A DNA stretch of 64,000 nucleotides, taken from the IMG/VR virus record IMGVR_UViG_2932480793_000001, positions 1 to 64,000 of that record; one strand, 5' to 3'. The translations under genes and the position numbers were made by a program. Shown here one piece after another: positions 28,958 through 59,198 of this stretch; positions within the stretch are counted from its first letter, which is position 1; every line of letters starts with the position of its first letter. The notes under the pieces were generated by a model, which saw only the letters and a list, made by a program, of their open reading frames with translations, had not been told where the DNA came from and ran no database searches. Source of the stretch: a virus (Duplodnaviria; Caudoviricetes).

Positions 28958-28972
28958 CCGAAAGGACTCGTC

Positions 28973-30667
28973 ATGCCGCTGCCTCCGTCTGGGAACACCT
29001 CGTGGCCGCCGCCTCGCTTGGAGATTCCGCATGCCGACATGGACATGTGGCGGGCCTGGTACGCGGGTGACACCGGGCATTTGGCTCAGGTGTACGGCGG
29101 GCCGGCCGCGTACACGCGGAACGGTGTGGCGCGCGCTTTCTTCGACGTGGACCGGCGGCGGGCGGTGGGCGGTGATGAGCTGCGGATGTTCTGGGGTCAG
29201 GATCCGTCGCCGGGACAGCAGGCGGCGAAGTTGCATGTGCCGATCGGAGGGGACATTGCGGAGATGTCCGCGAACCTGCTGTGGGCTGAGGTGCCGCAGG
29301 TGACCGTCGACGTGGACTCGACGAAGAGCGACCTTGCGCAGTCGACGCAGGCACAGATCGGCCGGTACCTCGATGACCGGGGGCACGCGAAGTTCCGTGA
29401 GGCCGCCGAGCTGGCCGCCGGGTTGTCGAACGTGTACCTGCGGGTGGTGTGGGATGTGGAGCTTCGGCCGCGCCCGTGGCTGGACGTCATCCCGGCAACC
29501 GCGGTGGTCCCGGAGTGGCGGTGGGGCATGCTCGCCGCGGCGACGGTGTGGCGGGAGCTGGAGCCCCTCGCGGAAGGCGGGGATGTGTGGCGGCTCCTGG
29601 AGTACCACACCCCGGGATTCATCGAGTACGGGGTGTACCGGGGCGACAACAGCACCCTCGGCATGCTGATGGGGTTCGACGACCACCACGAGACCGAGTT
29701 CCTGGTGAAACGCACCGACGCCCACGGCCGTCAGGCAACGGGCGTCGACCGCCTGCTGATCACGCACATGCCGAACGTGTTGCCCAACAGAATCTGGGAC
29801 GGTGTGCCGGACACGGCACCGCTGGGGCGCTCCGACTACGCGGGCATCGAGCCGATGATGGACGCCCTGGACGAGTCGTGGTCGTCGTGGATGCGGGACC
29901 TACGGCTCGGCAAGGCCCGGGTGGTCGTTCCGCAGGAGATGCTCGACACGGACGGCCCCGGTTCTGGAGGATCCTTCGACCTGGACCGGGAGCTGCTCGT
30001 CTCGGTGAGCGGCTTCCTCGGTGACGAGAAGTCCATGAAGGACTCGATCACCGATGTCCAGTTCAAGATCCGGGTCGAGGAGCACGAGCGGACGACGAAG
30101 GAGCTGCGTCGGCAGATCCTCTCCTCGGCCGGCTACTCGGCTCAGTCGTTCGGCGAGCAGGGCACGGTCGCGGTGACGGCCACGGAGATCGCGGCCCGTA
30201 AGGAGGAGTCGCTGACAACCCGGGGCTTGAAGATCCTGTACCAGCGTCCGGCGTTGTTGGAGGTGCTGACGACGATGATGTGGGTCGACGTGAAGCACTG
30301 CGGGGCGAAGAAGGTGGATCCGGCGGCGGAGCTGACGGCGTCGTGGCCTCAGGCGGTGCAGCCGGATCCGGAGGCCACCGCGCGCACCCTGTCGCTGCTG
30401 GAGTCGGCGGGGGCGATCAGCACGTACATGAAGGTGAAGATGCGGGAGCCGGCCTGGGATCACGCCGAGGTGATGGAGGAGGTGCGGCGTATCCGGGACG
30501 ACAAGACGCAGGAGACGCCGGCCGGGGATCCGTTCAACACTCGCGACGTAGATCCGAACGAGGAGCAGCCGGACGACGATGTTGAGCCGGGCTTCGATGA
30601 GGGCCAGGGCGAGGAGCTCGACGAGGAGCCGGTGGGCGGGGGCTCGCGGCCTACGTTGGCGGCTTAG
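28973..30667 (+). CDS. Portal protein
   Basis: Follows terL; LGRSDY...MDALDESWSSWMRDLRLG...TATEI. Confidence 0.92.
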   Translation: MPLPPSGNTSWPPPRLEIPHADMDMWRAWYAGDTGHLAQVYGGPAAYTRNGVARAFFDVDRRRAVGGDELRMFWGQDPSPGQQAAKLHVPIGGDIAEMSANLLWAEVPQVTVDVDSTKSDLAQSTQAQIGRYLDDRGHAKFREAAELAAGLSNVYLRVVWDVELRPRPWLDVIPATAVVPEWRWGMLAAATVWRELEPLAEGGDVWRLLEYHTPGFIEYGVYRGDNSTLGMLMGFDDHHETEFLVKRTDAHGRQATGVDRLLITHMPNVLPNRIWDGVPDTAPLGRSDYAGIEPMMDALDESWSSWMRDLRLGKARVVVPQEMLDTDGPGSGGSFDLDRELLVSVSGFLGDEKSMKDSITDVQFKIRVEEHERTTKELRRQILSSAGYSAQSFGEQGTVAVTATEIAARKEESLTTRGLKILYQRPALLEVLTTMMWVDVKHCGAKKVDPAAELTASWPQAVQPDPEATARTLSLLESAGAISTYMKVKMREPAWDHAEVMEEVRRIRDDKTQETPAGDPFNTRDVDPNEEQPDDDVEPGFDEGQGEELDEEPVGGGSRPTLAA

Positions 30668-31066: not shown

Positions 31067-31474
31067 TCATCGCGGGGGCTCCTGGGTGGGCAGCGGGTTG
31101 ACCTCGGGGTGGGTGTATCGGATCGGTTTGCCGAGGGATGTGGCGTATCGGATTTCCGCGCGGGTGCTGTCGCCGATGTAGTCGCCGACCACGAGGACCT
31201 CGTCAGCAAGGCGGATCTTCGCCCGGTGCAGAGCGTCGAGGCTGGCCTTGAGCGGCTCGGCCTGCTCGGGGGTGCCCCACAGGGCGTGGGGTTCCTTCAT
31301 GTTGCAGCCCGGGGCGACGACGATGTGGCCGGCGGCGGTCTCCTGGAGGTTCGCCTCCTGCATGTCGGCCATGAACCGGGTGCTGCCGCAGATGACAACA
31401 ATGCGGGGGATGTCGAGGGTCTGCTTGGCCTGGGCGAGTTTCTCCTCGGCGGTGAGGAGCTGCGGGTACGACAT
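31067..31474 (-). CDS. Nucleoside 2-deoxyribosyltransferase-like protein
   Basis: IVVICGSTRF...HRAKIRLADEVLVVGDYIGDSTRAEIRYATSLGKPI. Confidence 0.7.
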   Translation of the reverse strand: MSYPQLLTAEEKLAQAKQTLDIPRIVVICGSTRFMADMQEANLQETAAGHIVVAPGCNMKEPHALWGTPEQAEPLKASLDALHRAKIRLADEVLVVGDYIGDSTRAEIRYATSLGKPIRYTHPEVNPLPTQEPPR

Positions 31475-31528
31475 GGGTCTCCTTCGGGATCGCGGGCCGC
31501 CGTGCCGTACACAGCAGCCCGGGGGCGG

Positions 31529-31903
31529 TCAGGTGGTGGGTGCGGGAAGCAGCGGCTCCCAGACGGCGCGCATGGTGTTGGCGCACTCGGTGAGCCAGGC
31601 GCGGACAGCCGACTCGTCAGCCGTAGTGATCGGCATCTCGGCGGAGCAGGCGATGGCCCTGCGCTGGAGGATGAAGAACAGCTTCAGCGTCTCAGCGTCG
31701 CCCTCAGGGTCGCCGCTGGCCTTCTCCCAGTCCCAGCGGTACAGGAGATTCATGTCGCGGTCGCCCCGGAAGAACAGAGTCTCGGTGAAGTCGGCCCAGG
31801 ACTCGAAGAGGTTGTGCATGCCGGGCTTATAGAAGTTGCCCTCGGCGGCGTAGTACGGGTGGTCGGTCTCCCAGAGCGGGACAACGGTCTCGGGCGTGGT
31901 CAC
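31529..31903 (-). CDS. Hypothetical phage protein
   Basis: GGAGG RBS, GTGA overlap; LWETDHPYY...DMNLLYRWDW. Confidence 0.75.
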   Translation of the reverse strand: MTTPETVVPLWETDHPYYAAEGNFYKPGMHNLFESWADFTETLFFRGDRDMNLLYRWDWEKASGDPEGDAETLKLFFILQRRAIACSAEMPITTADESAVRAWLTECANTMRAVWEPLLPAPTT

Positions 31904-32175
31904 CGGGCCTCCTCGGGTGTGGTGGGCCAGGCGGCGAGGAGGTCCCGGCCGCAGTCGGGGTGGACGCAGATCCCGCCGTCGTCGAGGTCATCCGCGCCGA
32001 CCTCGCGGAAGTCGGCGTACCGGGACACGGGGGCGGGCTTGTGGGCGAGGCAGTGGTGCAGCCGCCCCTTGTTCTGCCGGTAGCCGACAATCCCGGTCGC
32101 GGCGGCCCTGGCGATCTCCCGATCCGAGGCGAGTTCCGTCGCACCCACCCAGGTGTGCTCATCTCGTGCGCTCAT
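31900..32175 (-). CDS. Hypothetical Cys-containing protein
   Basis: GAGGAG RBS before ATG 32175; CLAH...CVHPDCG. Confidence 0.65.
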   Translation of the reverse strand: MSARDEHTWVGATELASDREIARAAATGIVGYRQNKGRLHHCLAHKPAPVSRYADFREVGADDLDDGGICVHPDCGRDLLAAWPTTPEEAR

Positions 32176-32292
32176 CGGTCTACTCCTCGTTGTCGTTGTC
32201 ATAGTCCCGCTCCCACCATTCGCGGTCACGGCGGGCCACCTCGGCCAGGGTGTCCTCCCACGGCGGCAACGGGGCCGGGGCAGGCGGCGGGG

Positions 32293-32778
32293 TCACGGGG
32301 TGGGCTCGCCGTCAGGATGGGCGAACGCCCGGACTTCCACGGCCAGCCAGGCGGCGACCTCGTCGCGGGTGAGTTCCCCGCCGTGGACGGTGCCAGTCGG
32401 GTCGGCGTGAACGGCGTCAACCACGGCTTCACGCAGCGCGTCCGGGGGCGGCTCGTGCGCGGACCAGTCGACCGGGTACCCGGCACGGACCAACCAAGCA
32501 GCCGCCTCGGACAGGGCCCTCCGTAGTCGGTCGACCTCGGCCAGCAGCTCCGGAACTGACTGCCGAGCGCTGGCGATGAACTGCACGTCCGCCTCGGACG
32601 CCCCGTCAGCGGACAAAAGCACTCGGGCTCCTGTCCGCCCGTCGCGCAAGGTCTCAACGTAGACCACCGGGCGACCGCCGCTTCCGTCAGCGACAAGCCA
32701 CGGCCCGTCGGTGACCTCATCGAGGTTGCGGTTCTGGATCTGCGACAGGCGGTCCGGGGTCATCGGGGTGTCGGTCAT
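32293..32778 (-). CDS. Ead/Ea22-like phage protein
   Basis: TDGPW...ADVQFIASARQSVPELLAEVDRLR. Confidence 0.65.
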   Translation of the reverse strand: MTDTPMTPDRLSQIQNRNLDEVTDGPWLVADGSGGRPVVYVETLRDGRTGARVLLSADGASEADVQFIASARQSVPELLAEVDRLRRALSEAAAWLVRAGYPVDWSAHEPPPDALREAVVDAVHADPTGTVHGGELTRDEVAAWLAVEVRAFAHPDGEPTP

Positions 32779-33143
32779 CGGGGTCCTTCCAGAGACAGGG
32801 CGGGGGTCAGGCGCTGCATCTGCTCGTCGATCAGGTCAGTCAGCCAGTCGGGCCGAATGACGTACCCGCGCGCGCCGTCGACGCGACTCTTGTTCCAGCT
32901 GGCGGTGGTGATCGGCTGGCCGGGCTCGCCGGACTTCAAGCGGCGCGGACCGATGACAGCGACGTAAAGCCAGGTGCGGTCGTTCTCGCTGCCCTCTATG
33001 CGCTTGACGACAATCTCCACTTGGGCGGGGATAACGACGCGTCCGGTCGACGGGTCGGTCAGGTCGGGGCGTCCGGATACGGGCACGACCACTGTCGTCT
33101 CGGTGGCGCGGGTGAACGCGTCGGGCAGGAAGTGAATGGGCAT
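32775..33143 (-). CDS. Hypothetical phage protein
   Basis: GAGG RBS; GPRRLKSG motif; ATGA overlap. Confidence 0.7.
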   Translation of the reverse strand: MPIHFLPDAFTRATETTVVVPVSGRPDLTDPSTGRVVIPAQVEIVVKRIEGSENDRTWLYVAVIGPRRLKSGEPGQPITTASWNKSRVDGARGYVIRPDWLTDLIDEQMQRLTPALSLEGPR

Positions 33144-33173
33144 AGCCCAGTCCTCTCGTTGTATTGGCGAGGG

Positions 33174-33512
33174 TTAGGCCGCGAGTGCGAGCTTGGCAGC
33201 GACGAGGCGGTAAGCGGGCTTGCGCGCCTTGTAGTTGGCGGCGATGACCGCCACCTGGGCGCGGGTGAAGCGGAGGCAGTTCCGCATGTGGCGGCCGGCG
33301 TGGGCACGGCCTGCGGTTCCGAGGATGCCGAGCTTCGCGGCGACCTTGCGGAGGGTGCTGGCGACGGAGGTGGCGTCGCGGTGGGACAGGCCCTGGGCCA
33401 TGGCGTGGGCGGCGAGGGTGCCGACGCCGTTTCGGCGGATGCGTGCGGCGGCCCGGTTGGCGGTCTGGCGGGCCTTCAGGGTGGCGCGGCGGGTTCGGTT
33501 GCTGGCGATCAC
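33174..33512 (-). CDS. Basic putative DNA-binding protein
   Basis: Arg/Ala-rich 112 aa; first gene after a leftward promoter. Confidence 0.7.
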   Translation of the reverse strand: MIASNRTRRATLKARQTANRAAARIRRNGVGTLAAHAMAQGLSHRDATSVASTLRKVAAKLGILGTAGRAHAGRHMRNCLRFTRAQVAVIAANYKARKPAYRLVAAKLALAA

Positions 33513-33579
33513 GAGTCCCCCTCGGGTGGTTCTTGCTGTTCACCCTCGCGCCCCACTAGCGATCATGTGTTGCGCTGGC

Positions 33580-33641
33580 GATGACTCAGACAGTACGCCT
33601 GAGGCATGGCCACCGCAAGTGGGTTGCGATAGATTGGTGCC
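33580..33641. promoter_or_regulatory. Divergent promoter/operator
   Basis: Minus strand TTGCGG-N17-TACTGT; plus strand TAGATT 6 nt before ATG 33642 (leaderless); CGCAA-N5-TTGCG palindrome between them. Confidence 0.55.
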
Positions 33642-33932
33642 ATGAATCCGACCCCGCCCCCCGAGTCCCCGACCCTGGAGGACATCGCCGCAGCAGGCGC
33701 CCGCCGAGTCCGCGACGCCGACCGGCTCAAGAAGTCCAGCGACGAACTCAAAGAACTCGTCCTCGCCGCCCTCAGGGCCGGAACCCACAAGCCCACCGAG
33801 GTCGCCAAGAAGTCCGGGTGGACCGGCGCCCACGTCAGGAAAATGGCGAGGGAAGCAGGTATCGAAGCCGACGATCGGTACAAGGAGCGGGCCGAACGGC
33901 TCCGCAAGGCGCAGACCGAGGGGCCCTCATGA
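33642..33932 (+). CDS. Small HTH regulator
   Basis: ALRAGTHKPTEVAKKSGWTGAHVRKMAREAGI. Confidence 0.75.
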   Translation: MNPTPPPESPTLEDIAAAGARRVRDADRLKKSSDELKELVLAALRAGTHKPTEVAKKSGWTGAHVRKMAREAGIEADDRYKERAERLRKAQTEGPS

Positions 33933-34334
33933 CCGACGCCTTGGTGGCCTTCCTGAAGGCCCGGTTCGACGACGATGAGCGGGTGGCGCGGGCCTGCGCC
34001 GGTGACGGGACGTGGACCGTCGAGGACCTGGAGGTCTACGCGCCCGACCTGTCGGACGATGTCCGCACCCAAGCAGCCCGCCAGGACCCGGCCCGCACCC
34101 TGCGGGAAGTCGAAGCGAAACGGGCCGTGCTCGCCGCATACTGCGCAGCTGCCAGCGCGCGCGGAGTCGGCTCGCCTGGCCCAGAAAGCACGCACCAACG
34201 GATGGGACACGATCATGGCCGAGCTTGAGGAAGCCTCAGCCATCCACAAGCGGGACGCCCTTCACGAGGTACTGCGCCTCCTCGCCCTCCCGTACAGCGA
34301 CCACCCCGAGTACGAGGAAGCGTGGCGGCCGTGA
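33929..34334 (+). pseudogene. DUF6221-like gene split by a frameshift near 34155
   Basis: MTDALVAFLKARFDDDE...DPARTLREVEAKR lies in one frame, LRLLALPYSDHPEYEEAWRP in another. Confidence 0.75.
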
Positions 34335-34579
34335 CCCCGGACGAGGAGGCCCGGTTCTTCGCGCAGATCATCGGTGACGCGAAGCGCACCGTCCTGTGCG
34401 AACCACACCGGGTGGCCGAGATCCAGGACGTCGTCAACCGGCTCGGCATGGCGGGCATCGTGACGGTGACGGCCAGCCAGGTCTGCCCGGAAGGGAAGCT
34501 CCTGGTCATCGATGAGCAGGCCATGGAAGCGGCCTGTCGGCAGGGCGCGTCAAGGCCGATCCGGTTCCACGGAGGCTGA
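34331..34579 (+). CDS. Hypothetical protein
   Basis: GTGA overlap; GDAKRTVLCEP. Confidence 0.65.
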   Translation: MTPDEEARFFAQIIGDAKRTVLCEPHRVAEIQDVVNRLGMAGIVTVTASQVCPEGKLLVIDEQAMEAACRQGASRPIRFHGG

Positions 34580-34630
34580 CCTTCCCCCGTTCCTCCCCCG
34601 CCATCCCTACTCTCCCGGCAGAATGCCCCC

Positions 34631-34813
34631 ATGGCGAGGTTCACGGTCCACGGTGCGACCCAACGCGAGTGCCAGGACGCCCTGGATGAGCTGCTGGCCG
34701 CCATGCCCGTGACCGTGGCCCTCCGCCCCGTCCGCTCCGCCACCGGGGCCTGGATCGCCCGCGCAACACGCAAGGCCCCGGACCAGCAGGTCAGGGGCTT
34801 TGCGGTGCGGTGA
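34631..34813 (+). CDS. Small hypothetical protein
   Basis: 60 aa; possible leaderless start after CAGAAT. Confidence 0.55.
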   Translation: MARFTVHGATQRECQDALDELLAAMPVTVALRPVRSATGAWIARATRKAPDQQVRGFAVR

Positions 34814-35014
34814 GCCGGAAGTAAACGCCTTGAGGTAGGGCGAGGTTTCGGGCGTTCACCCCATGGGGTGGTCCGCCGCGTTTTGGGTCCTCAAACGCTT
34901 ACGGGTGTCGTTGATTCATCTGGAGCGCTATCGCGCTTTACGGTCGCGTCACCCCCGCCCTCACAGCCGGCACAGCAGAGCGGGTGGGGGTGACGCCTCA
35001 CAGAGGGATCAGCT

Positions 35015-35278
35015 ATGAACCATTCCCCTGCGGACCAGGGGTCTATCCCTGGCCGCGACCCGGCAGCGCCTGGTCGCAGTTCTCATCCGGCCACCGACTC
35101 GGCGCTGGTCGTGGTGGGCGGCGCATCGTTCATCGAGCTTGTCGCCGTGGAGGGGTTGGAGCCCTGGTTGGCGATCGGGCCGGCTGTGACGTTGGTTGCG
35201 TGCTTGAAGCTCGCGGTGTATGCCCCGGCTGGTGTCGGGTTGTTGCGGGACAAGGTTCTGCGGTTCATCCGTTCCTGA
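35015..35278 (+). CDS. Possible small membrane protein (moron)
   Basis: GAGGG RBS, two hydrophobic stretches, atypical codon usage. Confidence 0.4.
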   Translation: MNHSPADQGSIPGRDPAAPGRSSHPATDSALVVVGGASFIELVAVEGLEPWLAIGPAVTLVACLKLAVYAPAGVGLLRDKVLRFIRS

Positions 35279-35509
35279 CCTCCTCCCCGTGCTGCGCCCC
35301 GGTTCGCCAGTTGCTCGCTGGCGTGCCGGGGCGTTTCGCTTGTACACGCTAAGTCAACGGCTATGAGGAATCACAGTTCTTGAATTTAGGACGGTGTCAC
35401 TCGTTTGGAGGATCTGATGCTGTGAGGCTAGTTACGACCCGCTGGGCTCTGACTATGCCTGGGGCATATGCCGGGAGTGGAATGGGGTCCACGGCGCCAC
35501 GAGCGCACT

Positions 35510-35539
35510 GAGGCCCCGGAGCGGGTGCCCCGGGGCCTC
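35510..35539. terminator. Hairpin closing the leftward transfer operon
   Basis: GAGGCCCCGG...CCGGGGCCTC. Confidence 0.6.
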
Positions 35540-35553
35540 GGTACGCGGGCGAT

Positions 35554-35739
35554 CTAGTAGTCGTCGCGGCCTTCGCCGAGCCGCACCTTCAACTCCTTGA
35601 TCTTCCCGCTGGTGCTGAGCTCCGCGTACACGTTCCTGTCCCCCTGCACGTTCCCCTCCCGCGCCTGCTTCACGAACTCTTCGAGCTCGTCGAACGTCAT
35701 GTCCTTGCCTTCACCCGTGAAGTTCAAGCTGAGTGCCAT
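35554..35739 (-). CDS. Small hypothetical protein
   Basis: MALSLNFTGEGKDMTFDELEEFV... Confidence 0.6.
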   Translation of the reverse strand: MALSLNFTGEGKDMTFDELEEFVKQAREGNVQGDRNVYAELSTSGKIKELKVRLGEGRDDY

Positions 35740-35789
35740 GCGGTCATATTGGCGGGCCGACGGGAGTTGCGCTGCCGGTTCGACGAAGG

Positions 35790-36314
35790 TCACTTCGGCA
35801 GCTGGTTCCGGTTGTTGGCGATGACGCCGCGGGTGGTGCTGGTGACGGTGCGCTCGTCGTGGTGGACGTTGCCGTGGAAGTGGTTGGTGACCGGGGCCGG
35901 GGCAGCCTCAGCGGCATCCTTGACGCCCTTCATCAGCCCCTTCAGCGCCAGCACGGGCAGGGTGAGGGCGACGGGCACTCCAACGATCCCGCCGCAGATC
36001 CAGGCGATGACCGTCTCGTTAGCGTGTCCGGAGGTCCAGAGGATGAGGCTGACGGCCCCTCCGGCGGCGGCGGTGAGGATGCTGCTGGTGAGGATGGTCG
36101 TGTTGCGGTCGACAGCCCGCTGGCTCATGGCGGCCCGGCCAGGCTGCTCGACGGGCGGCGCCGTACCGACGACGGGAAGCGGGGTGTCGTCGCGGTGGTA
36201 CGTCTTCGCCATCTCCTTAAGGAGGACGGTCTCGACGGCGTCGGCAAGCTTGAGGACTTCGGCACGGTCGGCGGGGTCGGGCTGCCCGGCGACGGGCTGC
36301 TCGGGCAGCTGCAT
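35790..36314 (-). CDS. Spd-like two-TM spread/transfer protein
   Basis: DDTPLPVVGTAPPVEQPGRAAMSQRAVD followed by two TM helices; lies in the traB operon. Confidence 0.6.
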   Translation of the reverse strand: MQLPEQPVAGQPDPADRAEVLKLADAVETVLLKEMAKTYHRDDTPLPVVGTAPPVEQPGRAAMSQRAVDRNTTILTSSILTAAAGGAVSLILWTSGHANETVIAWICGGIVGVPVALTLPVLALKGLMKGVKDAAEAAPAPVTNHFHGNVHHDERTVTSTTRGVIANNRNQLPK

Positions 36315-36347
36315 GAGAGGGCTCCTAGTTGTTGAGGTGGTCTTCAG

Positions 36348-36533
36348 TTACCGGTCGAGCCGTCGAGTCATGACGACGCCGCCGCCGACGACAACGGCGA
36401 GATAGACGACGAGTCCGATGAGCATGCGGGCGGTGCTCGGATCGCCAGGTAGTGCGATGAGAGCGAGGGCGACCAAGCCGAGAACGGCGGGGCCAATGAT
36501 CGACACGAAGTAGAGGGAGTGGTAGCGCTCCAT
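36348..36533 (-). CDS. Small two-TM protein
   Basis: 61 aa, two hydrophobic helices. Confidence 0.65.
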   Translation of the reverse strand: MERYHSLYFVSIIGPAVLGLVALALIALPGDPSTARMLIGLVVYLAVVVGGGVVMTRRLDR

Positions 36534-36541
36534 GGCGGGTC

Positions 36542-37327
36542 CTAGCTGGTTGAGGCGGCAGCGGGTTTACCCGTGCCGCGGCAGATGGGGCAGACGGTGG
36601 TGATGCGCTCGCCGCCGAACGCGGAGTAGAGGGCGCCTTGGCCGCCGCAGCAGTAGCAGAGCCCCTTCTTTTCGGCGGCGGCTGGGGAGAGTGGGGTGTT
36701 CTGGGCTTCCCATTCGGTGTCGGTCATGGACGTGCTGGTGTCGGTCTTCGTGACCGACACACTTGCGGTGACGGGCTTGGGTTCGGTGGCCGGCTGGTCG
36801 ACGGCTTGCCCGTACCAGGCGCCGCCGACGGACTTCCCGCCGTGCTTCTTCTTCTCGTGGTCGCGGAGTGCCTTCGTGGCCTCCTTGGCGTCCCGGAACT
36901 TCGGCTTCTCCTTCTTGCCACAGGGGCAGGTCCAGCCGACGAGCCCGGTGCGCTTGTCGGGGCTGAACCGGGCGGCGAGGGCGACCTTGACCCGGCTGGC
37001 CTTCGCCTTGGTCGGTTTGGCGGGGCAGGGCTTGGATCCGCTGAATGCGCCGGTCTTCTTGTCCTTGGTGAAGATCTGCCCGTTGCCGTGGCAGGTGGGG
37101 CACCCTTCGTGGGTCATGCGGAGGATCGCCGCGTCCTTGCGGGTCATGACGGTGGTCTTGTGGGCGTCCATCTGGGAGGCGGCGATCAGGGCCATGCGCA
37201 TGCCGAGCCGGGCGTGAAGCGGCACCGTTTTCGGAACCTTGAGGCCTTTACCGATGCGGGCGCGCGGGACGGGCTTCCGGCGGCGGGCGACCGGCTTCCG
37301 GGTGGCGGTGGTGGTCTTCGCGGGCAT
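36542..37327 (-). CDS. Basic DnaJ-type Zn-finger protein
   Basis: CPTCHGNG, CPCG, CYCCGGQG, CPICRGTG; Lys/Arg-rich. Confidence 0.75.
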   Translation of the reverse strand: MPAKTTTATRKPVARRRKPVPRARIGKGLKVPKTVPLHARLGMRMALIAASQMDAHKTTVMTRKDAAILRMTHEGCPTCHGNGQIFTKDKKTGAFSGSKPCPAKPTKAKASRVKVALAARFSPDKRTGLVGWTCPCGKKEKPKFRDAKEATKALRDHEKKKHGGKSVGGAWYGQAVDQPATEPKPVTASVSVTKTDTSTSMTDTEWEAQNTPLSPAAAEKKGLCYCCGGQGALYSAFGGERITTVCPICRGTGKPAAASTS

Positions 37328-37371
37328 GATCGGCGGATCCTTCCGGGTGATCGCTTTGCGATGGTTTGCGA

Positions 37372-37526
37372 GGTGCTCACGGGGTGCTCAGTGCTGCTCC
37401 GTTGCAGGTCAGGGCCGCTCAGTCGGCTGCTCACGGGGTGCTCACGATCTTGTTGAGCAGGTGGTTGAGCAGGATGTTGAGCGGCTCTGACCTGCGGTTG
37501 AGCAGTCGTGAGCACCCCTTGAGCAG
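37372..37526. repeat. clt-like mirror-symmetric array of 12 TGCTCA/TGAGCA hexamers
   Basis: TGCTCA-type at 37374, 37385, 37395, 37416, 37428, 37439; TGAGCA-type at 37454, 37466, 37478, 37499, 37509, 37520; directly 3' of traB. Confidence 0.8.
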
Positions 37527-37534
37527 GGGGCAAA

Positions 37535-39553
37535 TCAGGAGATAGCGGTCAACGCTTCGAGCTTGTAGCCGCGCGGATTCTTCATCCCGTCCAGCGCCCC
37601 GAGGGTGACCGCCGACCCCGCCCCGGCGTCACGCAGCAGGCCTTGCAGATCACCGACCTCCAACAGCCCGTAGACCTCCGGGTCATGCCGCTTGAGGGCG
37701 TCGGCGAGGACCTCGCTACGCATCCGGTCGACCTCGGCGTTCGCCATCACCGCGATGGCGTCCGCGACCACCTGACTGCCGGTTACGACCCGCTCGCTCC
37801 CCCCGTCGGCCAGGTGCAGAAGCCCGGCGGCAGCAAGGGTGTCCCGATCGAACCACGGGCGGCCCGCGGCCTTGCGGTCGGCGACGGCCTGCTTGATCCC
37901 GTTGTTGCTGTGCTCGTTCCACCCATACAGCAGCGGGCGGGTGAGGCCGGGGCCCTTGATGTACGACTGGCCGGCGTCGTTCTTGAGCTCCTTCGTCTGG
38001 GCCGGGACGAGCCGGTCGGGGCGGAACCCTTCGGCGATCGCGCCGCGCCCCAGGACGAGGGGGATGTCGTCCCAGCGGGCGGCGAGCATGATGCTCAACG
38101 TGAACGTGTCGGCGATGGCGTCGCCCATGGCGTCGGAAGTGGCGTCCTGCCCGGCGGCGATGGGGTAGATCCCGGACTGCTTACCGAGGCGGATCAGCTC
38201 GATGAAGGACTCCTTGGCCTTGGGGCTGAGGTAGATGAACTCGTCGGCGAACACGAAGATCGCGGGACGTTCGCGGGTGGCGATCCAGGTGTCGCCCATG
38301 TTCAGCCGGTTCCGCACCGTCTGGCGGGCGCGGGCCATCTTGACGAGGTTGTCGAGCCACTTCTCGCAGTCCTTGTTGCCGCGGATCGGAGGAGCGGCCA
38401 TGACCCCTTCGAACTCGCGAAGCCCGTCCTTGACCGGGTCCATCTCGATGGCGATGGCGTTGTGGCAGGCGGTGATGACCTCGGCGAGGTCACGGAGGAC
38501 ACCGGTAGTCTTCGCCGCCCCGGACACTCCGATCGCGAGAATGCGGAGGCCTTCGAGGACGAGGGTGAGGGGGCTGCCGTCCATGCACCGGCCGAACGTG
38601 TGGGGGTCGGAGATGTCCAGGGAGTTCGGGGCGTGGGGGGTGGGCTTGGGCATGTTGTCGAACGGGTTGGCCTGCACGAGTCGCAGCACGAGGTGCGCGG
38701 ATTCTTGCGGGTCGGGGTCGATGAGGGTGCCGCCCTGCTTGATGTTGAAGTGGGCGTCGAGTTCTTTGACCGAGGCGTTGACCTTGCCGACGGTGGACCC
38801 CTTGAGGACGACGTCGACTTCCCAGCCCCACGCCTGGTGGCTGATGACGCGGACGGTGCGGGTGCCGATATTCTCGGCGGCCAGGGCGCGGGACACGCAC
38901 TCTTCGACGCGTTCACCGTCCACGCAGTAGGACAGGGGGAAGGGCTCGTCGCTGTTCGGGTCGTCGTACTCGGCGACAACGTCGTCGGTGCCGATCGCGG
39001 GCGCGTTGAGCCGGTACCGGCCGTAGAGGGCGGTGGCGGTGGCCGCTATGGCCGCAGTGATGGCTGGGGGGATCATCCACGAGTAGTCGAGGGCGGTCAT
39101 GCCTGCGCCGGCGACGAGGGCGATCCATCCGGCGACGTTGAGGGCGGCGGTGACGCCGGCTGCGTAGCCGAGGAACCGCCACCGGGACCGGCGGACTTGC
39201 TGGACCTTATTCCAGTCGGCGGACTTGTTCATCCCGCCGAGGACTTCCTGAAGGTCCCGGGCACGAACGTACCGGTAGCCGAGGTACGTCCCGGCTTTGA
39301 GCCCGGCCCAGAACCACCCGCCGGCGACGAGGGATCCGTAGGCGGTGAGGCCGACGGCCCGCCCGGTGACGGAGGCGACAACCATGGCCGCCGACCCGGC
39401 CTTCGACAGGACCGGGGTGCGGTCCGGGAACGGGATCAGAACCCCGGGGGCGATGTCGTCGACGGTGCCGTCAGCGTTGTGGATGAGCTGCCCGGGGATG
39501 ACGTGCTCGGTCCACTCGGCGGGGACGGTCAGCGGCTCGGCTTCGGTGCTCAC
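37535..39553 (-). CDS. traB: TraB-type FtsK/SpoIIIE conjugative DNA translocase
   Basis: N-terminal TM helices, Walker A GVSGAAKT, Walker B IFVFADE, RLGKQSGI, and a C-terminal winged-helix-like domain ending NPRGY. Confidence 0.8.
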   Translation of the reverse strand: MSTEAEPLTVPAEWTEHVIPGQLIHNADGTVDDIAPGVLIPFPDRTPVLSKAGSAAMVVASVTGRAVGLTAYGSLVAGGWFWAGLKAGTYLGYRYVRARDLQEVLGGMNKSADWNKVQQVRRSRWRFLGYAAGVTAALNVAGWIALVAGAGMTALDYSWMIPPAITAAIAATATALYGRYRLNAPAIGTDDVVAEYDDPNSDEPFPLSYCVDGERVEECVSRALAAENIGTRTVRVISHQAWGWEVDVVLKGSTVGKVNASVKELDAHFNIKQGGTLIDPDPQESAHLVLRLVQANPFDNMPKPTPHAPNSLDISDPHTFGRCMDGSPLTLVLEGLRILAIGVSGAAKTTGVLRDLAEVITACHNAIAIEMDPVKDGLREFEGVMAAPPIRGNKDCEKWLDNLVKMARARQTVRNRLNMGDTWIATRERPAIFVFADEFIYLSPKAKESFIELIRLGKQSGIYPIAAGQDATSDAMGDAIADTFTLSIMLAARWDDIPLVLGRGAIAEGFRPDRLVPAQTKELKNDAGQSYIKGPGLTRPLLYGWNEHSNNGIKQAVADRKAAGRPWFDRDTLAAAGLLHLADGGSERVVTGSQVVADAIAVMANAEVDRMRSEVLADALKRHDPEVYGLLEVGDLQGLLRDAGAGSAVTLGALDGMKNPRGYKLEALTAIS

Positions 39554-40848
39554 TTCTGCTCCTCGGTGGAGGTCCGTTCGATGCGTGCCTGGTTGCGTGC
39601 GAGGGGGCTGGGGGGCGGTGCGTCACCGGCCCGGCGGCGGGGCGGCACTCCCCCGTTTCCGCGGCGCCCGTCGGGGGTGTTCGGGTCCTTCTTCGGCTTG
39701 GGGGGTCGATGGGAATTGATCAGCGAAAACTCTCCGAAAACCGGGGTCTTCGTAGCGGCCTGCATCCGGGCCTCTGCACCGCGTGACTGCGCCTCGATTT
39801 CGGGGGTGATCCCGACGGTCTTCGAGCCGGTGACACGACCCCACGCCTCGGTCCAGATCTGCTCGGTGACGTACTGCGAGCCGCGTGCCGAGCGGATCGC
39901 TTCGGCGACCTCCCACACCTTCGGGTGGCCGCTCTTCCGGTCGGCGTCGCGCCTCTTCTGCTCTTCCTTCGCGCGGGACTCGGCGAGCTGCCGGTCGGCC
40001 TCTGCCGCGTGCTCCGCGTCGCGCTGTGCCTGCTGCTCCTTCTTGAGCGCGGCGGCGGCTTCGGACTGGGCCCGCGCAACGGCGCGGCGTTCCCGCCAGG
40101 AGGGGATGCCGTCGGCCTTCTGCGCCATGCCGTGCTCGTAGGCCATGAGGACGAGCGGCCCGCCGAGGGATGCGATGGCACCGATGAGGCCGGCGTTCAG
40201 GCCGATGCGTTCGTCGGAGATCCCGCCGTGGAGGTTGACGACCGCGGCGATGACCGCGCCGACCATGATCCCGATGCGGTAGGGGGCGACGTCTCGCCGG
40301 TTGGCGACCGCCCATGCGGCACCGAACGCGAGGACGAGGGCAAAGCCTTCGAGGAGGGCGGGAGCGGCGACGAGGAAGGGGTGCTCGGGATCCCAGAAGT
40401 GCATGAACTGAACCGGCCCAGCAATGATCATTCCGATGGCGTAGATGGCGCGGGCGCCCCACTTCCACCAGAGCTCGGATCGCACCTGCTCCGCCTCCCG
40501 CTTGGCCTCTGCAGCCTCACGGTCGGCTTCGGCCCTCTCCGCCTTCTCCTTCTCGGCGTTCGCCTTGGCGGTTTCGGCAGCCTTCTTGGCGACGTAGTTG
40601 TCGTGGTCGACCTGCTTGCGTTCCTGGGTCAGCCGGGCGCGCTCGTTCGCGATGCGGAGCTTCTCGGCCTCCTCGGCGGCAAGGGTGCGGGCCGCGTCGG
40701 CTTCACCCTTGGCCTTGACGCGCAGGGCTTCGGCTTGGGCTTCGGCCCTGATGCGAACGGCGTCCGCCTCGGCGAGCGCAACCGGGTCGAACCGGGGCTC
40801 GGAGGTGGGCCGCTTGTGGCCGTTCACCTGGGGCGGGCTGGTCGTCAC
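39550..40848 (-). CDS. SpdB2/DUF2637-like four-TM coiled-coil transfer protein
   Basis: Coiled coil, four TM helices, coiled coil; GTGA-coupled to traB. Confidence 0.7.
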   Translation of the reverse strand: MTTSPPQVNGHKRPTSEPRFDPVALAEADAVRIRAEAQAEALRVKAKGEADAARTLAAEEAEKLRIANERARLTQERKQVDHDNYVAKKAAETAKANAEKEKAERAEADREAAEAKREAEQVRSELWWKWGARAIYAIGMIIAGPVQFMHFWDPEHPFLVAAPALLEGFALVLAFGAAWAVANRRDVAPYRIGIMVGAVIAAVVNLHGGISDERIGLNAGLIGAIASLGGPLVLMAYEHGMAQKADGIPSWRERRAVARAQSEAAAALKKEQQAQRDAEHAAEADRQLAESRAKEEQKRRDADRKSGHPKVWEVAEAIRSARGSQYVTEQIWTEAWGRVTGSKTVGITPEIEAQSRGAEARMQAATKTPVFGEFSLINSHRPPKPKKDPNTPDGRRGNGGVPPRRRAGDAPPPSPLARNQARIERTSTEEQK

Positions 40849-40869
40849 GGCGGTCGGTGTCCTTTCGGG

Positions 40870-41271
40870 TCAGGCGTTGCGGGTGGGGGTGATGCCCTTG
40901 AGCCACGTCTCGACGTCGGCGGCAAACCCGCCGCCATCCGCCGGCTCGTCCGGCTCGGTGTCGTCGTCTTCGTCGTCGGGGCCGTCGCCGCAGCACTGGC
41001 ACTCCAGGTCCGACCAGAGCCGGCCCGACTGCCACAGCCCGTGCGCGAGGGCTCCGATCACGTCGAGCACCCAGGACGGCCCGGCCACGAGTACCGCGGC
41101 GGCGAACAGATGGTGGCCGCCAGGGATCACAGTCGATACGGCAGCTGCGGCGGCGATAAAGCCGGCGCTCGTCCACCGGTGGTGCCCCCGGTTCAGGAGC
41201 ACCATCCGCGGATGAGAGACGATGTCTCGCCCCAGGCAGATGAGGTCGGCGACGGGGCGAGGCAGGTTCAC
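40870..41271 (-). CDS. Membrane protein with C-terminal CxCC
   Basis: GTGA overlap; two hydrophobic segments; LECQCCGDG. Confidence 0.6.
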   Translation of the reverse strand: MNLPRPVADLICLGRDIVSHPRMVLLNRGHHRWTSAGFIAAAAAVSTVIPGGHHLFAAAVLVAGPSWVLDVIGALAHGLWQSGRLWSDLECQCCGDGPDDEDDDTEPDEPADGGGFAADVETWLKGITPTRNA

Positions 41272-41576
41272 GAGGGGCTCCCAGCAGTAGCGTGTTGGCG
41301 GGCGCGGTGGAACTCGCGGACGAACTCGTCGGTGATACCGGCCCCGACGAACCCGCTGACCGGGGGCCGGCCCAAGCGTTGGGCGGCCCACAGTTCGAGG
41401 AAAATCAGGCGGGTGGCCAGGTAGTTGACGACCGGACGGACGCAGCGGACGGTCAGGACCACCGCGCCCAGCACGGCCATCACCAGCAGGGCCAGGAGTC
41501 GGAGAGTCCACACCCGCACCCAGGAGGTTGCGCGCCGGAACCAGCCGGGCTTCGCGGTGATCAGGTACGGATGCAC
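41268..41576 (-). CDS. Small membrane protein
   Basis: GGAGG RBS; one TM helix. Confidence 0.65.
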   Translation of the reverse strand: MHPYLITAKPGWFRRATSWVRVWTLRLLALLVMAVLGAVVLTVRCVRPVVNYLATRLIFLELWAAQRLGRPPVSGFVGAGITDEFVREFHRARQHATAGSPS

Positions 41577-41585
41577 ACGAACCTC

Positions 41586-41786
41586 CTATCGCCTGGTGCC
41601 GCCGTGCCACCAGGACACCCGCGCTGCGGCGTCGTTCGCGGCGGCATTCAGCCGCTGGTAGTCGGGGGTCTCGTCGAAGATTCCGGCCCGGCTCTCCCAG
41701 TCGGTGTTGTCGTTGAGGGCCTGATCGGCGGCCTTCATGTCGGCAATGGCCTGCTTCTCTTCGACGGACTTACGGAACAGCCCCAT
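41586..41786 (-). CDS. Small hypothetical protein
   Basis: GAGGAGG RBS; MGLFRKS...ETPDYQRLN...VSWW. Confidence 0.7.
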   Translation of the reverse strand: MGLFRKSVEEKQAIADMKAADQALNDNTDWESRAGIFDETPDYQRLNAAANDAAARVSWWHGGTRR

Positions 41787-41880
41787 GCGGGCCTCCTCGG
41801 TTGGGTGTTGGGTCCGGGTGGCTCCCGGGCCACTCCGCCGCCACCAACACGGGGTTGGGGGCGACAGGGCAGGCCGGGGG

Positions 41881-42183
41881 TCAGGCGGCAGCCGGCGTCG
41901 ACAGGCCGTCCAACTCGTCGAGCTCATCCAGCAGCCGCGGGCCGAACGGCTGTCCCGCGTCGTGCTCGGCCGCCAGGGTCCGCAGCCAGTGCTGGGTGCC
42001 GTAGTCACTGCGGGCCGCCACATACCGGGTGACGATCTCCCCCGGCGACAGGCCCTCCGCCTCCTCCCACGTCACCTGCACGTCGGAGGTGAGGAGCGCC
42101 GCCCGCAGGTTGTGGATCTCGGCGGACACGGTGGCGAGGTCGCCGGAGAACAGGTCGGTCACGGTGGAAACGAACGGAGACAT
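41881..42183 (-). CDS. Hypothetical protein
   Basis: 100-aa ORF with GC3 bias in the leftward operon. Confidence 0.65.
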   Translation of the reverse strand: MSPFVSTVTDLFSGDLATVSAEIHNLRAALLTSDVQVTWEEAEGLSPGEIVTRYVAARSDYGTQHWLRTLAAEHDAGQPFGPRLLDELDELDGLSTPAAA

Positions 42184-42370
42184 GGAGGTGCCCTTCGGTT
42201 GGGTGGTGGGGTGAAAGAAGAGGTGGGGGTGGGAAGCCGCTCCCGCCCGGGACGGGGGTCGGACACCGGGCAGGAGCGGCGGACTAGGGGGTGCTACTTG
42301 CCGCTGTTGTTGCGGCTGCGCCGGTTGGCATCGGCGACCTTGCGGGAGAGCGCCTCGCGCTCAGCCTCAG

Positions 42371-42568
42371 TCACGGCCGCCAGCCCTCAGAGGGCTGAAC
42401 AGCATGGGCGGCGGCCGTCTCGAACGCCGCCCGGGCGGACTCCTGGTACAGGTGGAGCGAGCCGGCCGACGGGTGGTCGGGAGTGGTCGTAATTTCCTGG
42501 GCGCGGGCTGCGAGACCCTCGGCCCGGTGCTGCTCGTCGAACGCGAACGCCGGAGCCAGCACGATCAC
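42371..42568 (-). CDS. Small hypothetical protein
   Basis: GTGA-coupled to 42565-42732. Confidence 0.5.
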   Translation of the reverse strand: MIVLAPAFAFDEQHRAEGLAARAQEITTTPDHPSAGSLHLYQESARAAFETAAAHAVQPSEGWRP

Positions 42569-42732
42569 CACCCCCGCTGCGCAATGAACCGGCGGCGAGC
42601 AGCCGGTTCCGCGGGCGGAGTCGGAGAGTCCTGGGAGACCTGGGCCGGGCGGCGGACGTGGGACGCTGCTCGGTGCGCAGCCTCATCCGCCGGAGAGAGC
42701 TCGTTCGGTGCGGTGGGGGTCAGAGCCTTCAT
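42565..42732 (-). CDS. Small hypothetical protein
   Basis: GGAGG RBS; MKALTPTAPNELSP...RRRFIAQRGW. Confidence 0.5.
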   Translation of the reverse strand: MKALTPTAPNELSPADEAAHRAASHVRRPAQVSQDSPTPPAEPAARRRFIAQRGW

Positions 42733-42734
42733 GG

Positions 42735-42965
42735 TCAAGCCACCTCCGTGGGGGCAACGAGGGAGTCGTCGAAGTACGCCGTCACGGCGGCCTCCGGGAT
42801 GCGGATTGCTCCCCCACGCCTGACGTCTCCGTCCGGACGGGGCTTCCCGTATCGGACGGCGGGCAGGTCCCCGCTTGCGATCCAGCGGTAGATCGTCGGC
42901 TTGGAGACGCGCAGCACTGCTGCGGCCTCTTGCACGGTCAGCAGTTTCGGGCTGGCAGGCAGCAT
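42735..42965 (-). CDS. Excisionase-family HTH protein
   Basis: LLTVQEAAAVLRVSKPTIYRWIASGDLPAVR...IRIP. Confidence 0.85.
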   Translation of the reverse strand: MLPASPKLLTVQEAAAVLRVSKPTIYRWIASGDLPAVRYGKPRPDGDVRRGGAIRIPEAAVTAYFDDSLVAPTEVA

Positions 42966-43154: not shown

Positions 43155-43688
43155 GTGACTGAAGGGCAGTGGAGCGGTTCGTCAACGCCCTACCTGGGCG
43201 CTGATCAGGGAGACGTCTGGGGGAAGGAGGCCGCCGCGAAGGGCAAGCTGGGCACCCAGCGACTCCTCGGCGTGGGGCGTCAGATCCCAAACGGCGACAT
43301 TGCTCGGCACTTGCAAGTCCAGGCTGGCGGGGAAGTCGTCGAGCGGCAGCGGCTGATCCTGCTGGACGAGGAACCAGTCGAGATCGCGACGTCCTACTGG
43401 CCTGTCATCCTCGCGGGCGACACGCCGCTAGCTCGCCCCGCCAAGATCCGGGGCGGCGCGGTCTCGCTCCTGGCATCCCTCGGGTACACGCCAGGCAGCA
43501 TCGACGAAGAGATCGCAACGAGGCCCCCCACTGGCAGCGAAGCTGAAGCCCTCGGGCTCACCGCAGGGGAATGGGTACTCATCCTCACCCGCATCATCCG
43601 TGCCGCTACCGGGGAGCCCTACGAGGTCTCAGTCATGGTCAGCCCCGGCCGCATTGGGCGGCTCCACTACTCGATGAAGGTTGGCTGA
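43155..43688 (+). CDS. Stand-alone UTRA domain protein
   Basis: VVERQRLILLDEEPVEIATSYWP...KIRGG...EEIATRPPT...EPYEV; no N-terminal HTH. Confidence 0.8.
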   Translation: MTEGQWSGSSTPYLGADQGDVWGKEAAAKGKLGTQRLLGVGRQIPNGDIARHLQVQAGGEVVERQRLILLDEEPVEIATSYWPVILAGDTPLARPAKIRGGAVSLLASLGYTPGSIDEEIATRPPTGSEAEALGLTAGEWVLILTRIIRAATGEPYEVSVMVSPGRIGRLHYSMKVG

Positions 43689-43689
43689 C

Positions 43690-44463
43690 ATGACGAAAGA
43701 ACTCGACGAAGAGAGCGTCTGGCCCGTCCAGGACCAGATCGCCTCCTACCTACGCGAGAGAATCCTCGACGGCGACATCGAACCGGACGGCAGAGTGCCA
43801 TCGAGCCGCCAGCTGTACGAGCTGTTCGGCGCGGCAGCCCAGACCATCAAGAACGCCGTGGCGATCCTGGAGAAGGAAGGGCTCGTCTATACGAAGCGCG
43901 GCTCTGGGGTCTACGCCAGGCAGCACCGCCAGCGCACGATGACGCCGGCCGAGTTCAAGAATCCGCCGACGGACGGCGGCAAGTACCAGTGGATCAGCGC
44001 CGCCGAACGCAAAGGCATGTCGGCACGGTCAGAGCTCTTGGACGTCGAGGAGGTGGAGCCCCCCGCCCTGGTGCGTAATGCACTAAACCTCGGCGACGGC
44101 GAGAAGGCGATCTTGCGGCGCCAAGTCCTTCACCTGACAGAGGGAGGACGCGACGAGCCATGCGAACTGGTTGAGGTCTACATCCCTCTGACGTTGGCCG
44201 AGGGGACGCCGATCGCTGAAGCACGCAAGATCAAGGGGGGTACTGGCCGAGTCCTCCTGGAGGCCGGACTCCCGCCTCTTCGGTGCGTTGACAAGGTGGC
44301 GGCGCGCTGGCCAACACCTCGTCAGGCGAGGGCGCTTCGGATGCCCACGAAGCTGCCCGTACTGCGTCAGTTCCGGGTGACGTACAGCGTGAACGACCGC
44401 CCCATCCAGGCCGAGTTCATGGTCAAGGCAGGCCACCTCTATGAGCTGGAGTACGACTTCTAG
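43690..44463 (+). CDS. GntR/HutC-family repressor (KorSA/TraR-like)
   Basis: QIASYLRERILDG...VPSSRQL...EGLVYTKRGSGVY plus UTRA; divergent from the tra operon. Confidence 0.9.
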   Translation: MTKELDEESVWPVQDQIASYLRERILDGDIEPDGRVPSSRQLYELFGAAAQTIKNAVAILEKEGLVYTKRGSGVYARQHRQRTMTPAEFKNPPTDGGKYQWISAAERKGMSARSELLDVEEVEPPALVRNALNLGDGEKAILRRQVLHLTEGGRDEPCELVEVYIPLTLAEGTPIAEARKIKGGTGRVLLEAGLPPLRCVDKVAARWPTPRQARALRMPTKLPVLRQFRVTYSVNDRPIQAEFMVKAGHLYELEYDF

Positions 44464-44603: not shown

Positions 44604-45158
44604 ATGCCCACGCCCCCCGAGCCCACCGCGCTCTACCGCCTCTACAACGCCGACGACCGTCTGCTCTACATCGGAATCTCGCGCGAGCCGGAAGCCCGGC
44701 TGCGAGACCACAGATGGGCCCCTCATCACGGGAAGTGGGCCAAGCTGATTGAGCGCCGCGAGATCACGTGGCACTCCAGTCGCGCGGCTGCCCTGACGGC
44801 GGAGGCCGCCGCCATCCGCGAGGAAAGACCAGCCCACAACGGTTCGCACAACTATCCGCACGCCCCCTTCAACCCCGCACACTGGCCCCGGATCGCAGCG
44901 GCGCGCGGCATGTCGGCGCAGCTTGCACTCCTCGTGCTCGCAGAGATCGAATCCGGCAGATGGCAGCCGGGCATGAAACTCCCCTCATGCAGTGAGCTCG
45001 GCCGAGCCACCGGCATGAGCAAGTCGGCCGCCACCAGCGCCATCCGAAAGCTCTGCGCAGAGAATCAACTGACGCAGATCCAGGGAGTCGGCGTCTTCGT
45101 CTACAGCGAGACCGGAATCGAGCGGGCCAACCAGGCCAGACGACGCCCTGCCACGTAG
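44604..45158 (+). CDS. GIY-YIG nuclease fused to a C-terminal GntR winged HTH
   Basis: ALYRLY...LLYIGIS...RLRDH...AEAAAIREERPAHN; EIESGRWQPGMKLPS..EL...GVGVFV. Confidence 0.82.
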   Translation: MPTPPEPTALYRLYNADDRLLYIGISREPEARLRDHRWAPHHGKWAKLIERREITWHSSRAAALTAEAAAIREERPAHNGSHNYPHAPFNPAHWPRIAAARGMSAQLALLVLAEIESGRWQPGMKLPSCSELGRATGMSKSAATSAIRKLCAENQLTQIQGVGVFVYSETGIERANQARRRPAT

Positions 45159-59195: not shown

Positions 59196-59198
59196 GGG

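Follow-up and report, generated by a model that had tools for sequence, protein, structure and literature searches.

A 64,000-nt stretch of viral DNA, the first 64 kb of the 72.5-kb (72,492-bp) virus record IMGVR_UViG_2932480793_000001 and hereafter the window, carries a 152-bp array of short phased hexamers arranged as two opposed arms. The array lies between the gene for an FtsK/TraB-like translocase of double-stranded DNA (dsDNA), here P0001, and the gene for a basic zinc-ribbon protein, here P0002. The element that bears it is not a plasmid but a temperate siphophage of Streptomyces, from a lineage not previously described. On the strength of sequence comparisons across phages and plasmids, we consider it probable that the array is the cognate recognition or loading site of the phage translocase, a counterpart of the clt locus of Streptomyces plasmids.

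An earlier reading of the same DNA (the original prediction) described six TGCTCA-type hexamers followed by six inverted TGAGCA-type hexamers. The sequence itself and a pattern search bore out this series, with start-to-start spacings of exactly 11, 10, 21, 12 and 11 bp in one arm and 12, 12, 21, 10 and 11 bp in the other. Exact TGCTCA copies begin on the plus strand at 37374, 37385, 37428 and 37439, and exact TGAGCA copies (TGCTCA on the minus strand) at 37454, 37466, 37499, 37509 and 37520. Thus 9 of the 12 hexamers are exact, and the other three differ at one position (TGCTCC at 37395, CGCTCA at 37416 and TGAGCG at 37478). The imperfect palindrome that had been placed near 37449 was also recovered, the array centre falling between 37444 and 37454 with 86-nt arms that are 71% complementary. 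The 21-bp gaps, said to be inverted copies of each other, are so over the 18-mers 37404-37421 and 37478-37495, which differ at a single position. Both neighbours were as described, an FtsK/TraB-like open reading frame (ORF) on one side and a basic zinc-ribbon protein on the other; the array begins 9 bp from the translocase stop codon and occupies the 207-bp gap directly upstream of the P0002 start. Of the 32 exact TGCTCA copies in the whole genome (both strands, 72,492 bp), 9 fall inside these 152 bp, where a Poisson model expects 0.067 (P = 7e-17). Across the window the hexamer is not enriched (31 copies versus 24.4 +/- 5.0 in shuffles).

We assessed the conservation of the array in 24 loci of true relatives (23 distinct) drawn from four collection scans, which together with the window give 25 rows. 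L011 is the same locus as L018 and L012 the same as L019, and a spurious 18-residue match in a Bdellovibrionota contig (L007) was left out of all counts. A two-armed array was found between the translocase stop codon and the basic zinc-ribbon gene in 25 of 25 rows; a comparable array beside traB in homologous elements, whose absence the original prediction had named among its refuting observations, was therefore present in all of these loci. Nineteen rows (17 distinct), here group A, have the window-type C-terminal translocase domain and array architecture. The 17 aligned group-A arrays can be superimposed almost without gaps (152 bp in 15, 153 bp in the other 2), and column identity is 97% in the TGCT/AGCA core, 90% in the inner GCAGGTCA elements, irrespective of hexamer class, and 59% in the spacers. 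Positions 5-6 of the hexamer read CA, CG or A in different elements and are uniform within each. A stretch of untranslated DNA beyond the array, at 37345-37373, is kept in all 17 group-A loci, again regardless of hexamer class. In the six rows of group B neither the C-terminal domain nor the motifs are related to these. The motifs are of the CGTCTA type, a mix of CGTCTA and CGGCTA, or of the CCGGCG type, and both arms space them at exactly 11 bp around one central GCAGG(T). Overall, we take the array to be genuine and conserved, with selection maintaining it as a series of phased sites for protein.

P0001 is a member of the FtsK/SpoIIIE-type dsDNA translocase superfamily. Over residues ~195-572 it shares 33-37% identity with the "FtsK-like DNA translocase" found in 89 Streptomyces phage records and 31-35% identity with ORFs from 45 plasmids of Streptomyces or Kitasatospora. 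At least 304 relatives were found at E <= 1e-5, nearly all labelled hypothetical proteins. Searched alone against PDB sequences, P0001 returned a single chance-level row (E 0.32), whereas a profile built from 54 diverse relatives matches the FtsK motor structure 2iut (E 1.5e-19). In these 54 relatives the Walker A lysine K348 and the Walker B residue E438 are invariant, and the second acidic Walker B residue, D437, nearly so. An AlphaFold2 model of P0001 (predicted local distance difference test (pLDDT) 84.8 overall, >93 over residues 200-580) is matched best by FtsK motors in a Foldseek search (E 1e-15; template modelling score 0.66-0.69, target-normalised), followed by TcpA and EccC. Long helices are modelled at 55-97, 111-149 and 162-183 over hydrophobic sequence and may form an N-terminal membrane anchor, and the protein would be a hexamer. 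The C-terminal domain follows a low-confidence linker and has a helix-strand-helix-helix-wing order, with a helix at 633-642 and a wing from T650; its topmost fold matches are mostly winged helices, chiefly DNA-binding, none of them significant. With a putative membrane anchor, an FtsK motor and a C-terminal winged helix, P0001 would have the architecture described for TraB.

The hexamer co-varies with the C-terminal winged helix of the translocase across homologues, a relationship that the original prediction had suggested checking. Wing residue 650, defined as the residue after a conserved G-x-G-x-x-V and a threonine in the window, corresponds to hexamer positions 5-6 at all 27 distinct loci (taken from 35 rows; one array is cut off by a contig end). 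Threonine occurs with TGCTCA in 8 loci, proline with TGCTCG in 15, serine with TGCTCG in 1 and glutamine with TGCTA in 3. The rule was stated from 17 loci and then applied to 10 new metagenome loci: nine agree with it, none is in conflict and one has the serine, a residue outside the rule. Between the three hexamer classes the recognition helix hardly differs, which points to the wing as the discriminating part. A code based on the helix itself (Q637 with A, and R with G, at position 6) fitted the first six loci and was refuted by L010-type sequences, in which R occurs with TGCTCA.

The motor domain of the translocase does not follow the motif. A maximum-likelihood tree of the motor domain (23 rows) mixes the hexamer classes, with 4 changes for TGCTCA and 6 for TGCTCG. 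Three pairs of loci are mosaics, in which DNA similarity stops partway through the translocase gene and returns 193-211 bp past its stop codon, just before the zinc-ribbon gene; in the pair L006/L026 the exchanged piece consists of the last 279 bp of the translocase gene plus the array. These breakpoints, and trees that do not track the motif, suggest that the C-terminus and the array swap together, and to judge from the sequences the two behave as one exchangeable cassette.

The two arms of an array may not always carry identical words. In one metagenome sequence with a glutamine wing (rows L035, L036 and L038), the left arm is of the TGCTA type and several right-arm units read CAGCAG, not TAGCA.

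Arrays of this kind are also found beside plasmid homologues of the translocase. All four inspected Streptomyces plasmid homologues (pFP1, pSLUN2, the NBC_00285 plasmid and an S. olivoreticuli plasmid) have a two-armed array, and the arrays contain the same GCAGGTCA core. On pFP1, pSLUN2 and the NBC_00285 plasmid, a CTCTAC/GTAGAG array lies 3' of the homologous ORF, framed by an inverted GCAGGTCAGCGGCC-type pair and followed by a basic protein with the same zinc-ribbon motif. The pFP1 protein in this position is weakly similar to P0002 (E 7e-5, single comparison). The array of the S. olivoreticuli plasmid is different and has one core copy; on a fifth plasmid, CP108176, one core copy accompanies inverted repeats of a different kind. 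On pFP1 a DUF2637 protein is encoded ahead of the translocase; their operon diverges from a GntR gene and lies a long way from the MobF/rep-like gene, which is a layout of the tra/spd type. The phage GntR/UTRA genes, divergent from a block headed by an HTH_17 gene, resemble this layout. On two plasmids (L029:933-1301 and L030:1043-1411), a small "RRQRL motif-containing zinc-binding protein" is encoded between the DUF2637 and translocase genes.

The GCAGGTCA element is not restricted to the arrays. It occurs at 45619-45626 (minus strand), just after a TTGACA hexamer, and at 57043-57050 (minus strand), both intergenic and promoter-like places, and 10 times in pFP1, several of these being non-coding (84, 14393, 15423, 16027 and 30709 of L049). 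Copies within genes may mirror the common GAC-CTG codon pair, and the element could be the site of a conserved regulator. A third exact copy of the 13-nt inner element, GCAGGTCAGAGCC, lies at genome position 72448-72460, outside the window (L008:12448-12460) and 44 nt after an integrase-like ORF. In a related record (G004) a third copy lies 52 nt from the record end, and four other searched records have array copies only; the third copy may be tied to an attachment or integrase region. The reader of the invariant element is probably something equally conserved, candidates being the zinc-ribbon protein, a conserved part of the translocase and a host factor. A possible model is SpdA, which binds sps, a DNA word that is constant across otherwise dissimilar Streptomyces plasmids according to the accessible text of PMC4170104. 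As described there, sps is a different, 12-bp palindrome, located inside spdA, that affects stability and not transfer. We considered the inner element as SpdA's sps palindrome and rejected it, as the sequences differ.

Several other explanations of the array were weighed against a translocase site. The mirror symmetry could reflect a nucleic-acid structure, either an RNA hairpin (a terminator, processing or stability element) or a DNA cruciform: in addition to the complementarity of the arms, the predicted RNA fold reaches -109 kcal/mol (z -9.9), and 73.6% of alignment cells pair versus 24-45% in slid controls. The pairing, however, is unevenly placed. Hexamer positions show 82-100% mirror complementarity and the inner element 77%, but the spacers are at the chance level of 27% (92/340), and many of their pairs are unpaired in 10-17 of the 17 sequences, suggesting that no hairpin is under selection. 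What two-sided changes there are come down to one A/G switch of class, repeated at position 6 in every hexamer and occurring together in the same sequences, and not to independent compensations. The arms of group B are unequal (2-3 versus 4-5 repeats), neither a terminator-like site nor a U-tract was found at the array, and Rfam gave no family at threshold, generic hairpin matches scoring at best 41.7 versus 268 bits. The symmetry, by these comparisons, lies in the motifs, as expected for protein sites, and we regard a structural role as highly improbable. Among proteins, the original prediction had offered a centromere-like site for the adjacent zinc-finger protein as an alternative to a TraB site. 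P0002 has the composition, the motifs and the constant position for a centromere-like or accessory DNA-binding protein, and the weakly similar protein of pFP1 occupies the same place. Its alleles nevertheless fail to track the motif: P0002 of L022 is 82% identical to that of the window beside different motifs (CGTCTA/CGGCTA versus TGCTCA), that of L005 is 75% identical beside the same motif, and the pairs L016/L024, L006/L026 and L014/L017 behave likewise. Moreover, the mosaic breakpoints split P0002 from the array and never the array from the translocase C-terminus. With near-identical zinc-ribbon proteins beside differing motifs, the centromere-like proposal found no support for the hexamers and seems very unlikely; P0002 could instead bind the invariant GCAGGTCA element.

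A transcriptional role does not require transfer at all. The array could be an operator or platform that is bound by the translocase winged helix, the HTH_17 protein or GntR and controls the zinc-ribbon gene and the genes behind it. Its place directly before P0002 with a conserved untranslated stretch after it, and the occurrence of GCAGGTCA in promoter-like intergenic spots of the window and pFP1, would fit this explanation, as would the co-variation if the translocase autoregulates. We nonetheless judge it improbable: 12 sites over 152 bp are far above usual operators, the plasmid relatives have the array within a tra/spd-type operon and no sigma-70-type promoter was found in 36900-37900, by a scan that covers Streptomyces promoters poorly. 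Short repeats phased at ~11 bp also recall the iterons of replication origins and the terminase-binding boxes of packaging (pac/cos) sites. An iteron origin adjoins its initiator gene and is specific for it, but here an initiator-like HTH_36 gene (59199-60167) and DnaC/DnaB lie ~20 kb off, at 57115-60167, and the opposite strand holds the terminase and portal genes, at 27707-30667. The same type of array is found on plasmids without phage genes, in a tra-type operon far from the MobF/rep-like gene, and its motif specificity goes with the translocase C-terminus, leaving an origin or packaging site only a slight chance.

Several observations weigh against a clt-like translocase site. The traB label of the original prediction holds at the level of the FtsK/TraB superfamily but not at that of the plasmid equivalog: against NCBIfam plasmid_TraB (NF041214), P0001 scores 16.5 bits (E 0.0024) where the cut-off is 800, and its relatives score 25-44 bits, marking it as a divergent member. 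Pfam gave zero matches for P0001, whole or in pieces; the Pfam FtsK_SpoIIIE cut-off is reached by the relatives P0240 and P0252. The C-terminal domain matches generic winged helices only (Foldseek E >= 0.3, none <=0.001; best VIA-align Z 5.9), and no specific likeness to FtsK gamma was found among the fold matches listed. Co-variation serves here as a proxy for binding of the array by P0001, the evidence for the phage family being at the level of sequence. The coding region of the C-terminal domain adjoins the array, and this physical adjacency could contribute to their co-inheritance through linkage. Independent switches are few, with about four wing types in group A and three motif types beside the group-B domain, and the number of repeats is not always six, ranging from 2 to 6 per arm in group B. 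The invariant GCAGGTCA element is unaccounted for by a variable reader. Last, the translocase can work without an array, given that the homologue in the lytic BE-cluster phage NootNoot (FtsK-like gene, L032:2063-4100) has neither an array nor GCAGGTCA, the next gene following directly. By the same comparison, the array may be confined to temperate and plasmid lifestyles.

If the array is the loading site of P0001, the translocase would act as an FtsK-type hexameric dsDNA pump with its N-terminal helices in the membrane and its C-terminal winged helix on a flexible linker. Each winged helix would bind one hexamer, presumably through contacts of the recognition helix with the TGCT core and of the wing, at and around T650, with positions 5-6. 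Because sites spaced at ~11 bp share one face of the DNA, the six sites of an arm could engage up to six winged helices of a single ring, and the opposed arms might seat translocase assemblies in opposite orientations. The location of the plasmid homologues in tra/spd-type operons leads us to infer that such a pump would move the excised or replicating phage genome as dsDNA across hyphal cross-walls or between hyphae, without virions. By this analogy, the data suggest that the phage family is able to move DNA between cells as Streptomyces plasmids do. The original prediction had proposed that two opposed arrays load TraB in both directions; the part that assigns the site to the adjacent TraB-like translocase is supported by conservation and co-variation, and bidirectional loading remains conjecture. 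In its fullest form, one oppositely facing hexamer per arm would reel the circular genome as a loop from the array through paired membrane pores, allowing virion-free spread, and the exchangeable cassettes would block cross-mobilisation of co-resident relatives. We hold this bipolar loader to be a tentative and rather unlikely elaboration. If true, it would explain at the level of sequence how a pump in the form of a ring copes with endless circular dsDNA during Streptomyces conjugation; the accessible text of PMC11571958 still weighs mono- versus bidirectional transfer, and loop extrusion, as scenarios.

FtsK offers a precedent for a motor of this class that reads DNA words: the C-terminal winged helix of FtsK gamma recognises a short oriented word, KOPS, that sets the loading site and direction of the motor. 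KOPS are dispersed over the chromosome with a strand skew, whereas 9 of the window's 31 TGCTCA copies are at one 152-bp locus and the phage hexamer shows no genome-wide enrichment. According to PMC4447253 TraB resembles FtsK/SpoIIIE, and TraB hexamers are described as assembling at clt on 8-bp TRS repeats through a winged helix at the C-terminus (PMC4447253, PMC4170104 and PMC3583192, as available to us in part). TraB of pSVH1 is, in these accounts, a hexameric FtsK-like membrane pump with a C-terminal winged helix that reads short repeats near its own gene, as is proposed here for P0001, and its region likewise has a GntR regulator and Spd membrane proteins. It differs in that direct 8-bp repeats are read by helix alpha-3, whereas the phages have hexamers in two opposed arms and discriminating residues in the wing. 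Known clt loci contain direct and/or inverted repeats, and that of pWTY27, footprinted by TraA, spans the last 16 bp of traA and the next 159 bp (accessible text of PMC3583192). As set out in that source, this clt parallels the phage array in being a non-coding locus of ~175 bp that begins at the last tra codons, contains repeats and is bound by an FtsK-like membrane Tra protein, as is proposed for the phage. The phage array similarly lies in non-coding DNA beside the 3' end of its tra-like gene and consists of short repeated motifs. The pWTY27 locus combines 7-bp direct repeats with inverted ones, and transfer requires it in cis. It belongs to a plasmid, and the accessible part of the report does not describe its repeats as a strict mirror of phased sites; the phage array is known from sequence alone.

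Three features are new relative to the described clt loci: the strict mirror with ~11-bp phasing, the exchangeable wing-plus-array cassettes and the invariant GCAGGTCA element common to the plasmids. No description of a phage clt-like array was found in the literature searched, where subscription journals were thinly covered, and the accessible text of papers on Streptomyces phages notes FtsK/SpoIIIE-like genes without giving a function or a DNA site. Plasmid-phages that both conjugate and form particles exist (accessible text of PMC3583192); the examples there, pZL12 and pFP4, are plasmids; the present element, by contrast, encodes a putative integrase, and its relatives sit integrated in Streptomyces chromosomes. 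If our interpretation is correct, a plasmid-style module for DNA transfer is present throughout a large and uncharacterised group of Streptomyces prophages, and these phages may be able to spread in a multicellular host by a second route that needs no virions. The loci would also constitute a natural specificity series on one scaffold (T, P or Q wings with CA, CG or A, plus whole-domain swaps), making the recognition code of TraB-like winged helices directly testable. Finally, a two-armed, 11-bp-phased design that is common to phages and plasmids would hint at how such pumps are oriented on circular DNA.

Table 1. Coordinates in the window of the array, its parts and the neighbouring genes.
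Feature	Position	Strand	Remarks
Whole two-armed array, 152 bp	37374..37525	.	Six plus-strand hexamers, then six minus-strand hexamers
Arm distal to the translocase gene	37374..37444	+	Hexamer starts 37374, 37385, 37395, 37416, 37428, 37439
Arm beside the translocase stop codon	37454..37525	-	Hexamer starts 37454, 37466, 37478, 37499, 37509, 37520
Inner conserved element, GCAGGTCA core	37404..37421	+	Runs into the fourth hexamer; inverted copy of 37478-37495
Second inner GCAGGTCA element	37478..37495	-	One mismatch versus the first copy
Conserved untranslated stretch, CAAACC-N4-CAAA-N-GATCA type	37345..37373	-	Between the array and the P0002 ribosome-binding site
P0001, 672-aa putative membrane FtsK/TraB-type dsDNA translocase	37535..39553	-	phrog_12531 FtsK/SpoIIIE-like, E 5.6e-67
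C-terminal winged-helix domain of P0001, ~residues 590-672	37538..37786	-	Modelled, pLDDT 87.5; proposed hexamer reader
P0002, 261-aa basic protein with CxxCxGxG zinc-ribbon motifs	36542..37327	-	Next after the array in all 25 loci
P0003, 432-aa coiled-coil and membrane protein	39550..40848	-	Upstream of the translocase; possibly SpdB2-like
Small HTH_17 DNA-binding gene	42735..42965	-	E 1.2e-16; heads the leftward block holding P0003, P0001 and P0002
UTRA and GntR-UTRA regulator genes	43155..44463	+	Divergent from the leftward P0003/P0001/P0002 block

Of the named ESM Atlas clusters, the one closest to P0003 is called "putative SpdB2 protein" (0.87), which we treat as a lead only, and 1 of the 120 relatives listed has the UniRef name DUF2637. 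Pfam was empty for this protein even at E 10, and a BLASTP comparison with a DUF2637 protein cut from a plasmid gave nothing meaningful.

The assignment of the element to a temperate siphophage follows from its gene content. PHROG and Pfam searches identified an endolysin, tail proteins including a 1954-aa tape measure and a major tail protein, head-tail connectors, a major capsid protein, a large terminase and a portal, together with DnaB and DnaC-like proteins, methyltransferases, RecT/YqaJ and the HTH_17 protein. At the right end of the record, a 423-aa ORF matches a phage-integrase N-terminal domain at the cut-off. The lineage is distant from deposited phages: megablast of 35500-40900 against them returned zero matches, and the portal protein is at most 40% identical to that of any deposited phage.

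The gene order is odd for a siphophage. The terminase and portal genes (27707-30667, plus strand) sit between two minus-strand blocks, 3223-25332 and 31067-42965, which hold capsid, tail and lysis genes and early or transfer-like genes. A 94-nt tRNA-Tyr called by ARAGORN on the opposite strand within the RecT gene region (L008:4942-5035, plus strand) is probably a false call. Among the remaining plus-strand ORFs, one of 184 aa at 44604-45158 combines a GIY-YIG nuclease domain with a GntR-type helix-turn-helix, and another at 50118-50576 has a SocA/Panacea antitoxin-like domain (E 1e-16).

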